DNA of 59,401 nucleotides from a virus. Its lineage: Duplodnaviria; Heunggongvirae; Uroviricota; Caudoviricetes. Below are positions 15,887-48,488 of this stretch, one piece after another; within the stretch, counting starts at the first letter, position 1, and each line of letters starts with the position of its first letter. Where the stretch lies: IMG/VR virus record IMGVR_UViG_3300021256_000055, positions 199,124 to 258,524 of that record; one strand, written 5' to 3'. Made by a program: the position numbers and the translations under genes. Below the pieces are notes generated by a model. The model saw nothing but the letters and a program-made list of their open reading frames with translations, was not told the origin of the DNA and did no database searches.

Positions 15887-16025
15887 AATTTAACCTCACT
15901 AAGTTTATTTTGTTTACAATAATAATATGTTAATAGTTCTATAGAAGTATAAAATAATAGAAAAACTCTTCTAATCTGACAGACTAGAAGAGTTTAGTAA
16001 ACAAATATTTATGAGGTGAACATTA

Positions 16026-16412
16026 TTAAAATCTGAATGATCCGTGTCCGAACTTATGAATCTCTTCAAGATGAGCTTTCTCAGCTGCAACATAGTCGTA
16101 GTCAGCAACTTTGATTTCTTCAAGACGCTTGATAAGTGAACGAACAAGAATATCCTGTTTAAGATCGAAGCAAGTGAACGACTGTTGAACTCTTCGAAGT
16201 TCATTTGTAAAAGACTCGATCGCTTTGTCAAATCCTTTATCCCATCCACCGTCCAGTTTCATTACTAAGTGAACGTATCTTGGCTTGTTTTCACAACAAG
16301 TAAGATTCACAGTTACTAAATCAAATCCGTGAGCCCAACTCTGAACTACTGATCCGATTTCTTTTATCGGGTTGAGAACATTTTCTAGTCTTAAGTGGTC
16401 TGCACAAGTCAT
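16026..16412 (-). CDS. Hypothetical protein (start moved to MTCADH)
   Basis: GGAGG SD and own promoter. Confidence 0.75.
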   Translation of the reverse strand: MTCADHLRLENVLNPIKEIGSVVQSWAHGFDLVTVNLTCCENKPRYVHLVMKLDGGWDKGFDKAIESFTNELRRVQQSFTCFDLKQDILVRSLIKRLEEIKVADYDYVAAEKAHLEEIHKFGHGSFRF

Positions 16413-16529
16413 AGTCTTAACCTCCAACCAGGTATTATTCGTTTACAGTTATAATATGTAGACAGTTCTATAGAAGTATAAAGCTAAAGTAAAACTTTCT
16501 AGTCTTATTTAACTAGAAAGTTTTTTAAA

Positions 16530-26770: not shown

Positions 26771-27050
26771 AATTTTAACCTCACTAAGTTTTATTCGTTT
26801 ACATATATAATATGTATTTAGTATTAGAAAAGTACAAAAACTCTACAGACTTATCTGATTTAAAAAAAGAAAGGACAAGCCAACGACTTGTCCTTTCAAA
26901 ATGTAAACAAATAACACAGGAGGTCATCTGGGAAAGCGGTCTTAACTCGTCGTAGCCTTGGTGGGCTTTTACCTCACCAACTAGCTGATAAGATGCAGGC
27001 CATTGCGTATCCTTGCACGTTACCGGCTCCCTTGATAATTCTGTGAATAG

Positions 27051-34319: not shown

Positions 34320-34646
34320 CTAGTCGAGGTAACACTCAACATACTTTGTATTTGGATCGTATTTTCGATCGAGATGAATCAAAGAAGACCAGTCTCCGTC
34401 ACTCATTACATAGTCACGTTTTCCTGGACGTCTTACGATTGGCTTTCCATTGTAAGATTTAAGAACAGGTTTTGTCTGTGTTGCAGCCTGAGTACCACCT
34501 GGTACATAAGATTTATTCAGTTCCTGTAATTTAACTGTTGTTGCAGTTTTACCAACGACTTCATAGAATGAGTAGAATGTTGCTGAATAGCTCAAACATC
34601 CAACTACTACATCACCAATATTCACCTGGTCAAGAACGTTTGCCAT
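34320..34646 (-). CDS. Conserved phage hypothetical protein
   Basis: GDVV...SY.ATFY.FYEVV.KT.TTV.L pattern. Confidence 0.75.
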   Translation of the reverse strand: MANVLDQVNIGDVVVGCLSYSATFYSFYEVVGKTATTVKLQELNKSYVPGGTQAATQTKPVLKSYNGKPIVRRPGKRDYVMSDGDWSSLIHLDRKYDPNTKYVECYLD

Positions 34647-34799
34647 AAGGATTTCCTCCGTTTTATTTGTTACATATATAATATGTAAATAGACCTATAG
34701 AAGTATAAAAACTCTACAGACTTATCTGATTTAAATAAAAAAGACCTGAGACTATTAACAATAATCTCAGGTCAATGTAAACAAATAACTAGAGGTCGT

Positions 34800-35462
34800 C
34801 TAGAGTTTTACAATGTCATATCCGAGTGAGTTTGCAAGAGCACGAAGATTTTTGATTACTTCAGACTCGTCAGCTGAGCTTTCTGAAGAGCCACTTGAAG
34901 TTCCACCTACCACTATACCAAGGAATCCGCGGTCTGGATCAATTCCTTTTTTGTATGCAACACTCATTGCAGAATAGGCAGTACGGCTTACACTTGCGCT
35001 GCTACTTGAGCGTGACAAAATTCCAAGAATTTGAGCTGGAATAATTGCCATAGCTTCTGGATCAGTGTAATCTGTTTCAGATACTGTATCAGCAAGTTTG
35101 TCCTGTTCGTCTTCAGTCAATCCTTTCAAAAACTTAATAGTTTTTTCAAGGTCATCTCCGACAATTTTTTTAGGATCGAGCTGTCCGAGCCAGCAATAAA
35201 CATTACTTGTATTAAACATCTTCCAGCAGTCATTAAACTCTGGTAAACCTTCACCACGTTTTGGCATATGGTCAAGAGGCTCATAACTTCTCAACTGATA
35301 AAGTACATCGTCAATAGAATGATTTGAATTGAATAAGACCTTTCCAAGTGAGATACCACCAAAGCGGATTCTCTTGTTGCCTTCAAAAGTCTGCCCAGTA
35401 ACAGCTACGATTTTGATGGATTTTTTGCCCATCTGATTTTTGTATGCAAAAAGTTCAATCAT
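34800..35462 (-). CDS. Hypothetical protein, 220 aa
   Basis: GGAG SD and promoter; 3' UTR carries an anti-leader element. Confidence 0.8.
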   Translation of the reverse strand: MIELFAYKNQMGKKSIKIVAVTGQTFEGNKRIRFGGISLGKVLFNSNHSIDDVLYQLRSYEPLDHMPKRGEGLPEFNDCWKMFNTSNVYCWLGQLDPKKIVGDDLEKTIKFLKGLTEDEQDKLADTVSETDYTDPEAMAIIPAQILGILSRSSSSASVSRTAYSAMSVAYKKGIDPDRGFLGIVVGGTSSGSSESSADESEVIKNLRALANSLGYDIVKL

Positions 35463-35545
35463 ACTTTAATCTCCTGTTGTTTTCGTTTACATATATAATA
35501 TGTAAACTAATCTGTAGAAGTATAAAAATTCTAATTTATATTAAA

Positions 35546-37731: not shown

Positions 37732-37790
37732 TTGAGCCTCCACGATTTGTTTACATTTATAATATGTAAACAAATCTACAGAAGTACAAA

Positions 37791-43622: not shown

Positions 43623-44072
43623 TTAAAAAGCCCTTGATTCAAAGTAAATAACAGCTTTTTCTAGGATTGAGTAGACTTTTGAGTTAACCTCAGCATACTG
43701 GTCTCTAAAGGTTGCAAGCTTCTGGTCAACATAGTCTTTTTTCCAGTTAATACCAGCTTCTACTTTATCATAGTCTGTTTGATCCATAAAGCAACCAAGT
43801 GACTGAAGCGCACCATCATAGTCCATCCCTTTAGATTTCATATCACTACGGGCTATTCTATAGGCTTCTCTCCAATCCATATCATCTTCTGATTGCTCTA
43901 CAATTTGATCAAGAATTGCAGTGCGAATTGTATTTGCGTCATCTGAAAGCTTTTTGTCTTCAGTTGAAGCAGAAAGTACTCTCAAGCCATGAATAATAAT
44001 TTCCCAATCACGACGACAGAACTCTAAATCCAAGTCCATATCATCATATTCAGGACCAAGGTTTAATATCAT
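43623..44072 (-). CDS. Hypothetical helical protein
   Basis: GGAGG SD and promoter. Confidence 0.75.
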   Translation of the reverse strand: MILNLGPEYDDMDLDLEFCRRDWEIIIHGLRVLSASTEDKKLSDDANTIRTAILDQIVEQSEDDMDWREAYRIARSDMKSKGMDYDGALQSLGCFMDQTDYDKVEAGINWKKDYVDQKLATFRDQYAEVNSKVYSILEKAVIYFESRAF

Positions 44073-44168
44073 TTAATACCTCCAAGTTATTTGTTTTACA
44101 TATATAATATGTACCCAAATCTGTAGAAGTATAAAAGCCAGACAAAATATCTGGCTTAACTTATAGAA

Positions 44169-45420: not shown

Positions 45421-47028
45421 CTAGTCATTTTTACCTAAGGTTACACCCTTGACTTTCTGAAACAAAGTTTCTTTATCATAGATTCCATCATCAATCTGGA
45501 ACTCATAAGCTTTCTGAAGCATCTTCTTAAAGATTGGTCCAGGTTTTTTTCCAAACTTGATCAAGTCATCTCCCGTCAAAACCGGCTTTGGCATATCCAG
45601 CTCTCTGAGCTCATCAATTTTTACTGTTCTTCTACGAACACCAAATGTAAGCTCATTTGTATGAATAGTTACTTCACGCTGGAGGGAACCTAAGATTCCA
45701 TCCCAAGCATCATCAACAGTCTTAAGACAACCTGTTTCATCTGCTTGTGCAAGCACAATCAAATCATCAAATGGCGTCTTTTTAATAAACTGCCAAATTT
45801 TAGTTGGTGACTTCATCTTCATCAACTGGTGCATTCTCATATGATTTTCTGTCATGGCTCTAACGAACTCACAATCATCATTTGGTAAACCAAGTGATTT
45901 ACAGAAGTCATAAGCAATTGGTGCTCCAACAACATCATGGTCTGAAACCTTTGGAATTGATTCAAAGAACTCTTTTCCATTGATTTCAAAAGTATTTTCT
46001 TTTGTACCTAAGTCTGAATGAGCTTTACCAATATCATGCAAGTAAGCTGACAAAATCATTAAGAATCGTTTATGTTCATCATCCTCATTTGAGATGCACT
46101 TAAACATATTCTTAACTACTTTCATAGTATGGTCATAAACTGTACCATTACCCAGGATTTCAAAATCTTTAGCTATGTGAAGCAAGTCCAGAGTATACTG
46201 ATTATTGATTGTAGCAACTCTTGTTAATCCACCATCCATATGGAACTTTACTAAAGCACCTTCTGAATGCCATTTAAATGACTGCTTTACTCTAAGCATT
46301 TCACCAAAGACTTTGCTCATACCAATAAGCTTCCAAATTGGAGCCATTAAATTCTGAACTTTTTCATCTATAAAGAACTTACCACCAAGAATCTTAGTGA
46401 GCTCTTTAAGCTGACGCTCTTTTGATACTTCGGAGAAGTCTAAGCCGTCAACAAAAGCTGCAAATTTAATCTGCTCTTTATTTGACATGGTAACTGGTAC
46501 AAATCCACGGCTTGATGCAAAGCGTACATATCTGAAGTATCTCAATGGGTCCTCAGACAATCTGTCTTTATAGTCCCCAATGAAGCGGAGTACTTTCTGC
46601 TTAATGTCCATTTCACCAAGCTCAGTAGGATCAATGATATTTCCATCAATATCTTCGTACAAAGCATTTACGGTGAAGTCACGACGCATAGCATCTTCTT
46701 TCAAGCTTGTAGTAAAGCCAACTTCAGGATGACGACCTTTTGTTTTATCAACACGTAATGTTGCAATTTCAACTTCTTCAATAGTTCCATCTGAGAACTT
46801 AATCAAAGGCATTGTAACACCAAACTCTTCTGAATTATCAGAAACATTAGAAAAGTCAGAAAAGATTTTATGCAAATCAGCCGGTGTTGCATCAGTACAA
46901 ACATCAAAGTCGTGAGGTTCCTTCCCTAATAATGCATCGCGTACACAACCGCCAACAAACCAAGCGCCAAATCCAGCATCAATAATAGGCTTGAGAACGA
47001 GTGTTTTTAATTCTGATTTAATATCCAT
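45421..47028 (-). CDS. cca: tRNA nucleotidyltransferase (class II CCA-adding enzyme) with HD domain
   Basis: VGGCVRD..LG..P.DFD, RRDFTVNAL, EDPLRYFR, H.EG..Y.HT, LHDIGK, H...GA and C-terminal LTGDDL..G.KPGP motifs. Confidence 0.9.
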   Translation of the reverse strand: MDIKSELKTLVLKPIIDAGFGAWFVGGCVRDALLGKEPHDFDVCTDATPADLHKIFSDFSNVSDNSEEFGVTMPLIKFSDGTIEEVEIATLRVDKTKGRHPEVGFTTSLKEDAMRRDFTVNALYEDIDGNIIDPTELGEMDIKQKVLRFIGDYKDRLSEDPLRYFRYVRFASSRGFVPVTMSNKEQIKFAAFVDGLDFSEVSKERQLKELTKILGGKFFIDEKVQNLMAPIWKLIGMSKVFGEMLRVKQSFKWHSEGALVKFHMDGGLTRVATINNQYTLDLLHIAKDFEILGNGTVYDHTMKVVKNMFKCISNEDDEHKRFLMILSAYLHDIGKAHSDLGTKENTFEINGKEFFESIPKVSDHDVVGAPIAYDFCKSLGLPNDDCEFVRAMTENHMRMHQLMKMKSPTKIWQFIKKTPFDDLIVLAQADETGCLKTVDDAWDGILGSLQREVTIHTNELTFGVRRRTVKIDELRELDMPKPVLTGDDLIKFGKKPGPIFKKMLQKAYEFQIDDGIYDKETLFQKVKGVTLGKND

Positions 47029-47487: not shown

Positions 47488-47614
47488 AGTAAGATAATTA
47501 GCTTAATAAAAAAGAAAGATCCACACAACGCATGGATCTTTCAGTGAGGTAACTATGCTTTGATTAAAACAAAACTAAAATCTTCAATAGAAGATTAAAG
47601 ATTTTAATTATGCC

Positions 47615-47806: not shown

Positions 47807-47939
47807 GCTTAATTAGCGAAAAATTAAAAACTTCCTAGGTGCTGCGCCGCAAGGGAAAGTTTTTACAGAGGCCCTCGAACCACCTAGCCTCTATCAAGTT
47901 ACGCTTCAAACCGGTTCAACTTGCAAGCTACCGGCCCCT

Positions 47940-48025
47940 CGGACCTAATCGGATTCGAACCGATATTCTACGCCTTTCCACTGTGGGCTTTAAGCGTAGG
48001 CCTAAGCCAATTAGCGGATAGGCCC
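47940..48025 (-). tRNA. tRNA-like element with expanded (18-nt) anticodon loop and G3.U70 pair
   Basis: GGGCCTA/TAGGTCC acceptor; AATTGG D loop; ACGCT/GGCGT stem; ATCGG-TTCGAAT-CCGAT T arm. Confidence 0.6.
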
Positions 48026-48431
48026 GGAACAATAGCTATTTATGCTTATCATCTGTACCACCCTGAAAAGTTGTGGCCTCGGGATGATTACCGTGGGTTG
48101 CTACCCCGCCAATCTAAAGCCTGGCGACTTTGAGAAAAGAGCCTCAACTAGTATAAGCTCTACATGCCCGAGTTTGTTTAGGTCAACTCTGTTTAACATG
48201 CTTGCAATTACAACCTTTAAGACAAGAAGCCTTAGTAAGACGCACTAGTCCCCTCACTTATCAGGAAATGCAGTTCCCGGAGCTTTCGCCTGCATACTAC
48301 TCGCAATGGTATTGGTTATAGTAAGTCTTACTAAAACTTCTTTTGAAGTTCTAGTGCAAGAGGATTCATTTAACGTAGCATAGCCTCTCACATCTTAATA
48401 TCCGTTCGCTACGGTAAGTGTTTTAACTTAC
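48026..48431 (-). ncRNA. Candidate ~400-nt highly structured RNA co-transcribed with the tRNA-like element
   Basis: Promoter +1 at 48431, no SD-led ORF, many helices. Confidence 0.55.
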
Positions 48432-48488
48432 ATATATAATATGTAAACTAAACTTGTAGAGTACAAAAACTCTACAGGCTTATCTTAC

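Follow-up and report, generated by a model that had tools for sequence, protein, structure and literature searches.

A conserved anti-leader sequence in the 3' UTR of a rumen jumbo phage early gene, a candidate RNA brake on early-gene translation

An uncultured rumen jumbo phage carries, in the 3' UTR of one of its early genes, a sequence complementary to the leader that most early genes of the same phage share. Its conservation among distant relatives strongly supports selection on the complementary sequence, and its most likely role, as judged from sequence comparison, is that of a built-in RNA brake on early-gene translation. Our main reading, to which we give a probability of roughly 0.45, is that the UTR carries an RNA seed whose partners in trans would be early mRNAs, bound at their 5' end and SD. 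The window analyzed here, a stretch of 59,401 nt, forms the end of a virus record of 258,524 bp with a CheckV completeness of 88. The early gene is called gene B, and the locus contains the following features.

35463..35504, minus strand: promoter core of gene B (35487-35504) and its own leader, which departs from the family consensus
34800..35462, minus strand: early gene B, 220 aa, from the ORF list; its 3' UTR bears the anti-leader
34800..34814, minus strand: last five codons of gene B including TAG (ATT GTA AAA CTC TAG), the 5' arm of hairpin HP1
34802-34800, minus strand: stop codon TAG of gene B, followed by ACGACCTCTA, ten bases containing ACCTC
34776..34795, minus strand: invariant 20-nt anti-leader, made up of an anti-SD portion (CCTC), a TAG spacer, and a stretch complementary to the 5' end of the leader
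34789-34774, minus strand: 16-mer GTTATTTGTTTACATT, identical to the copy at 26.9 kb
34737..34773, minus strand: intrinsic terminator, a 14-bp hairpin with a GUU loop (34743-34773) and U6 (34737-34742)
34707..34733, minus strand: 27-mer, the same as at 26836-26862, that forms the upstream module of the next promoter
34647..34687, minus strand: start region of the next gene (34320..34646), with its promoter core (34670-34687) and leader

The gene B UTR is about 65 nt long and consists of the seed and the terminator alone, since the module of the next promoter starts directly after U6. The earlier note had described an anti-leader copy as the whole 3' UTR of 34800..35462, and the UTR indeed holds only ACCTC, the 16-mer, the hairpin, and T6. 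The hairpin quoted there is also present, with a stem of 14 bp and a 3-nt loop in place of the 9 bp first read. The 14-bp stem, the short loop, the T6, and the maintenance of pairing across orthologues are those of an intrinsic terminator. Among nine orthologues 94% of cells are paired and seven of the 14 pairs have compensatory changes, compared to 24-48% for slid controls. G-U pairs within this hairpin show it to be read as minus-sense RNA.

The seed is located within an array of early cassettes that share one promoter family. About 55 small gene cassettes lie on the minus strand from approximately 12.9 kb to the end of the window. The promoter core of each is a near-identical ACATATTATATATGTAA, with TTTTTATACTTCTAYAGA before the core. 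Terminators precede the repeated early promoters, so that a composite of stem-loop and promoter recurs between the small genes, as in PeSL cassettes. The leaders fall into two classes. The long class, TGTAAAC(A/G)AATAA...GGAGG...ATG, is found in about two thirds of the cassettes (~35-40) and comprises the predicted targets of the seed, while in the short class, found in the remaining cassettes (~10-12), the SD comes directly after TGT and pairing with the seed is poor. The commonest variant of the long leader is a change from A to G after TGTAAAC, which retains a G-U wobble with the seed. The distance of the SD from the leader core differs among promoters. Conservation of the seed ends opposite the T of TGTAAAC, suggesting that the 5' end of the mRNA is located there; the short leaders, in which the SD begins at this position, fit such an end. 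The early promoter also contains a dyad, TTTACAT ... ATGTAAA, and the promoter at 37740-37775 (minus strand) has an extended perfect dyad, GATTTGTTTACAT ... ATGTAAACAAATC, the left arm of which is the anti-leader core.

The promoters of gene B and of the next gene were not called by a sigma-70 scan, and their hexamers deviate from the T4-type sigma-70 early consensus. A Pfam search of the whole genome found no match to the beta-prime subunit of RNA polymerase. No close relatives were detected in a phage collection by megablast or tblastn, and a viral contig collection, which may lack close records, had no match to the gene B protein, the promoter 19-mer, or the seed 20-mer. The strong GGAGG SDs and the GC content of 36% suggest that the host is probably not an enterobacterium. 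Among the early cassettes there is a gene for a 535-aa CCA-adding enzyme or tRNA nucleotidyltransferase with an HD domain (45421-47028, minus strand), and the phage also has tRNA-Arg, tRNA-Met, and tRNA-Ser genes. A region of about 560 nt without an ORF (47850-48430, minus strand) is found directly 3' of a standard early promoter (core 48428-48445). It has a higher GC content, appears structured, and includes a tRNA-like T-arm, GGTTCGAATCC; there was no ARAGORN call and no credible Rfam match within it.

The anti-leader is present in further copies in the genome. The 16-mer occurs exactly, in transcript sense, twice in the 258,524 bp, in the UTR of gene B (copy B) and at 26900-26915. A third copy is less similar.

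26900..26924, minus strand: copy A, the exact paralogue, with ACCTC, 4 nt, and the 16-mer, in a tRNA-Arg trailer and followed by a terminator
15997..16017, minus strand: copy C, a looser copy in the 3' UTR of ORF 16026..16427, with CACCTC, 4 nt, ATATTTGTTTAC, and a terminator

With up to three mismatches allowed, 21 matches to the 16-mer were found where 2.9 were expected, and 19 of these are leaders on the other strand. The agreement with the 26.9-kb copy that had been noted earlier is confirmed, as the 16-mer is exact and ACCTC lies 2-4 nt upstream in both. The same note held that the hairpin and flanks of the two copies are unrelated. This is correct for the upstream flanks, which are coding sequence in one case and a tRNA-Arg trailer in the other, and incorrect downstream, where an identical 27-mer follows both terminators and both hairpins have stems of 13-14 bp and a GUU triloop. 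The next-best copies of the 27-mer in the window differ by three mismatches. The two exact copies may thus reflect shared cassette ancestry, homogenization, or gene conversion, and with the shared 27-mer and GUU triloop hairpins the identity of copies A and B by itself is no proof of selection. Copy C and its terminator are absent in relatives L134-L136, which have 77% protein identity and possess the promoter family; in these the next promoter follows directly after the stop codon. Selection thus does not act on every copy, and copies can be gained and lost. Two other sequences were seen. The 3' UTR of a small ORF at 47520-47570 (minus strand) has an anti-SD-like GTTACCTCAC directly before its terminator and scores high in the duplex scan described below, and it has no leader-complement core and a layout different from that of copies A to C. 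The tRNA-Arg trailer upstream of copy A (26930-27050, minus strand) contains a stretch that, judged by eye, we take to resemble a 16S rRNA helix (TAGTTGGTGAGGTAA...CACCAAGGC).

The seed is predicted to pair with many of the early leaders. The reverse complement of the 16-mer is the leader consensus. A 26-nt seed region was scored for duplex energy against all 57 leaders, and the median was -18.3 kcal/mol, with 37 of the 57 leaders at -15 kcal/mol or better and 21 at -20 kcal/mol or better. The best duplexes are nearly continuous, running from the first bases of the leader through the SD. Pairing to the leader at 44072, which the earlier note had proposed as a check, is among the predictions.

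44073..44100, minus strand: predicted target leader of gene 43623..44072, with a predicted duplex of -24.2 kcal/mol, near-continuous from the 5' end to the SD

For background, every third 26-nt window on the transcribed strand of 46.5 kb (n = 15,501) was scored against a subset of 15 leaders drawn from the 57. Copy A comes first and copy B second among the 15,501 windows, with values of -18.3 and -17.2 compared to a background median of -7.3 (sd 1.7), and copy C is in the top dozen. The leader of gene B itself is predicted to form a duplex of -15.5 kcal/mol with the anti-leader, and the range including orthologues is -13 to -18. It is among the weakest of the long leaders for the seed in this genome and at all seven orthologous loci examined. 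The downstream leader (34647..34687) has a duplex energy of -16.1 kcal/mol here and -20 to -22 in the deeper orthologues.

Comparison with orthologous loci strongly supports maintenance of the anti-leader by selection. Eleven metagenome loci encoding homologues of gene B were compared, and the ten that bear the element represent about nine distinct sequences. The 20-nt CCTCTAGTTATTTGTTTACA (34776-34795) is identical to the window in all ten, over a range of protein identity from 92 to 48%, so that the outcome named beforehand as fatal, an element absent or randomly diverged in related genomes, was not observed. Four-fold sites of gene B have identities of 0.52, 0.50, 0.45, and 0.36 in the deeper lineages. 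The seed is more conserved than the variable hairpin and spacer, as is seen for the seeds of 3' UTR-derived sRNAs, and it is unchanged where its own or the downstream leader changes. The shared leader and the seed are both invariant in all of the relatives found, and thus there is no covariation between them to score. The eleventh locus (43% identity) lacks the element and has a plain terminator only, and its contig lacks the promoter family. The earlier argument for selection on the complementary sequence is therefore strongly supported through the orthologues; its premise that the two exact copies have no block relation is weakened by the 27-mer and the triloops.

Several other explanations and matches were rejected. 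In L005 an indel of 2 nt lies between stop codon and seed, which rules out a read-through peptide. For an antisense ORF on the plus strand (34813..34977) that would use the inverted leader and SD, the spacing to the ATG is 16 nt, and neither L004 nor L010 retains that ATG. An extra match in L001/L002, TTATTTGTTTAT, lies within the coding region and is due to chance. A metagenome pattern scan for the seed with a variable spacer gave chance matches; among the matches listed, one of 120 loci (L019) was a relative, and that match was a leader.

Gene B encodes a protein that falls in no recognized family. It has 11 homologues with 92-43% identity in rumen and gut metagenomes, and no match was found in Pfam, PHROG, or Atlas families. 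The AF2 model is confident (mean pLDDT 82) and shows an N-terminal beta domain with a helical domain, a Ser-rich linker that is disordered, and a C-terminal helix that is conserved; a search for PDB folds gave no match. Copies of the early promoter were not found inside the gene. In a codon alignment the synonymous positions of the last five codons are invariant in nearly all element-bearing orthologues, the sole change being Leu-to-Arg in L002/L003, while identical amino acids a few codons upstream have codons that vary among orthologues. Folds of every orthologue form a hairpin, HP1, between this tail and the seed. Its stem consists of UGUAAA/UUUACA and CUAGA/UCUAG pairings, and its loop contains the anti-SD. 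HP1 is weak (-5.9 kcal/mol, z = -1.3) and has no counterpart at copies A and C, and its status as a structural element is tentative.

The arrangement of the UTR suggests how such a seed might act. It sits just 5' of the terminator hairpin. Its anti-SD is ACCUC; several relatives have CACCUC here, which resembles the 3' tail of 16S rRNA. Together the anti-SD and an adjacent U-rich stretch are complementary to the SD and to about the first 13 bases of the leader found in most of the approximately 55 early cassettes. The seed could act within the full mRNA or as a stable 3' fragment protected by the terminator. By pairing with early leaders in trans it would block binding of the 30S subunit, and the duplex might also be a substrate for a double-stranded RNase. 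The identical seed in the tRNA-Arg trailer would act jointly with that of gene B, and the net effect would be that translation of early genes is damped or timed out. The sequence itself, its invariance, the terminator, and the complementarity are observed; that the RNAs pair in the cell, which way the effect goes, and whether processing takes place we infer. The seed shares the early promoter of its targets, and two to three seeds face about 55 leaders, so an effect in trans would need a 3' fragment that lives longer. Gene B has no internal early promoter, copy C is not conserved, and the seed also matches the left arm of the promoter dyad in some cassettes, all of which speaks against this reading. 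A broader version is tentative and somewhat less probable. In it, a few 3' ends (the gene B UTR and the tRNA-Arg trailer) with one seed that pairs with some 20-40 early mRNAs form a phage-wide riboregulator, the stable fragments of which silence the whole early program.

Action in trans is favored over action in cis alone because the gene's own leader is a weak partner, the seed remains constant as leaders vary, and copy A is in a trailer that encodes no protein. The complete invariance of the seed is best explained if many partners constrain it. The absence of the element from the 43% homologue also counts for the main reading, since the contig of that homologue is without the promoter family. 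The main competitor, which we regard as rather unlikely, is closure of the 5' and 3' UTRs in cis as in icaR, where the seed would fold onto its own leader and SD once the 3' end has been made. This would limit the translation time of each gene B message and perhaps protect it from RNases or expose it to them. When the complete message of 755 nt is folded, the seed is predicted to pair with the first 21 nt of that message, the SD included, with a core probability of about 1.0, and closure over the SD is predicted at a probability of 0.4-1.0. Intramolecular pairing requires no accumulation of RNA, only some genes carry the element, and there is a precedent in Staphylococcus aureus icaR (PMC3868564). 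However, in every lineage the own leader (-13 to -18 kcal/mol) is a poorer partner than most other leaders, the seed is invariant although that leader varies, and the identical 26.9-kb seed is in a non-coding tRNA trailer and not in the 3' UTR of a coding gene.

The remaining explanations assign no pairing to the seed, or place its function in the DNA. It is unlikely that HP1 and the terminator form a structured 3' end for protein binding, processing, or stability. The seed would then owe its resemblance to the leader to descent from an inverted promoter/leader piece of the cassette system, and the resemblance would play no part in pairing. The last 15 coding nucleotides, synonymously invariant apart from the Leu-to-Arg change, and the occurrence of the same HP1 in every orthologue agree with a structured end, and the array behaves like shuffling promoter-stem-loop cassettes of the PeSL type (PMC2839356). 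However, the weakness of HP1 and its absence at copies A and C speak against it, and it leaves unexplained that three copies with different spacers have an anti-SD and that the seed equals the leader consensus. An anti-SD kept in three paralogous copies with different spacers is meaningful only at the RNA level. It is improbable that the element is a DNA site, an inverted initiator region or half-dyad of the early promoter that binds the same polymerase or factor and serves as a roadblock, an insulator, an aid to termination, or a site of recombination between cassettes. The promoter dyad TTTACAT ... ATGTAAA, the left arm of which extends in some cassettes to ATTTGTTTACAT, the seed core, and the location of the element between a gene end and the next promoter would fit such a site. 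Its conservation, however, runs 8 nt past the dyad arm into the anti-SD; the distance from SD to core varies among promoters; there is no accompanying -10 or core element on the plus strand; and the G-U pairs in the adjoining hairpin indicate minus-sense RNA. Finally, promoter and leader repeats are abundant and copy C is not conserved, as would be expected if the element were a neutral scar of inversion or recombination between repeated cassettes, but 20 nt are invariant where four-fold sites are saturated, and the orthologue data make a neutral scar very unlikely indeed.

Sequences of relatives are present in RNA libraries from the bovine gut. Contigs of these libraries include both coding sequence and anti-leader, which supports the main reading weakly. 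Logan contigs of relatives with 88-95% identity were found in four of the libraries, and these contigs carry no end, strand, or abundance information. Two contigs stop at 34812, and one from a small-RNA library spans 34770-34871; as assemblies, they are not readable as transcript ends.

The proposed seed resembles several known regulators and differs from each of them. In S. aureus icaR, an anti-SD in the 3' UTR pairs with the SD region, blocks the initiation complex, and creates a substrate for RNase III (PMC3868564). The phage UTR likewise has an anti-SD complementary to the SD, and the full-length fold of gene B predicts the same closure. In contrast, the icaR motif serves its own mRNA only, while the phage seed fits dozens of other leaders better than its own. 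The phage seed is complementary to the mRNA 5' end as well, has a second copy in a non-coding RNA, lies in a UTR of only about 65 nt, and is phage-encoded. CpxQ, DapZ, and SroC are trans-acting sRNAs of enterobacteria that derive from 3' UTRs, and NarS is another (PMC7038943). Like these, the phage UTR has a conserved single-stranded seed just upstream of the parent terminator, with ribosome-binding regions as targets. The difference is that the phage seed, on a putative fragment with no known chaperone, would be aimed at the phage's own co-expressed messages through their shared leader.

Among phage RNAs the seed is most like c4. The c4 antisense RNA of P1/P7 (Rfam RF01695) and the CI RNA of satellite P4 are cut from the transcription unit of their targets, and they are phage-encoded antisense RNAs that pair in trans with a ribosome-binding site. 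The phage seed would also be a phage-encoded antisense directed at ribosome-binding sites. However, c4 is structured, processed by RNase P, and acts on one target operon in immunity, whereas the seed is unstructured and has many potential targets in the lytic early program. In an Rfam scan of the window only tRNAs passed the gathering score, and c4 (RF01695) gave no match. At the locus itself the best local Rfam matches are at chance level (SdsR, 18 bits versus 38, E = 0.75). The RegB endoribonuclease and the RegA repressor of T4 inactivate many early mRNAs at the SD or leader region (PMC3014915). Both systems would be early-encoded, global, and post-transcriptional, and the comparison is a functional analogy only. 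The T4 effectors are proteins, while the proposed phage effector is RNA.

The cassettes themselves are similar to the promoter-early stem-loop (PeSL) cassettes of T4-type phages (PMC2839356, PMC4122927). Each of the approximately 55 cassettes has a stem-loop terminator and a near-identical early promoter at its borders. Their promoter differs in sequence from that of the PeSLs, and the phage is unrelated to the T4 type. To our knowledge, PeSLs have not been described with an anti-leader placed between the stop codon and the stem-loop. In Pseudomonas phages, candidate ncRNAs of undefined function derived from UTRs have been reported (PMC10914365). We found no published account of a seed directed at the leader that a phage's own messages share.

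An RNA seed in gene tails would add a new type of global control to the early program of a phage. The known cases in which phage early genes are shut off post-transcriptionally mainly involve proteins, T4 RegB and RegA among them, and the 3' UTR regulators known from bacteria act on single genes or small regulons. If the trans reading is correct, a single invariant seed in ordinary gene tails addresses dozens of the phage's own messages via the leader they share. If the phage-wide riboregulator exists as well, it would be an RNA counterpart of RegB and RegA, and early genes with very short leaders would escape it. The uniform promoter-leader cassettes of large phages would then also be a handle for global control at the RNA level, and a leader mirror before a terminator would be a rule for finding regulators in uncultured phages.
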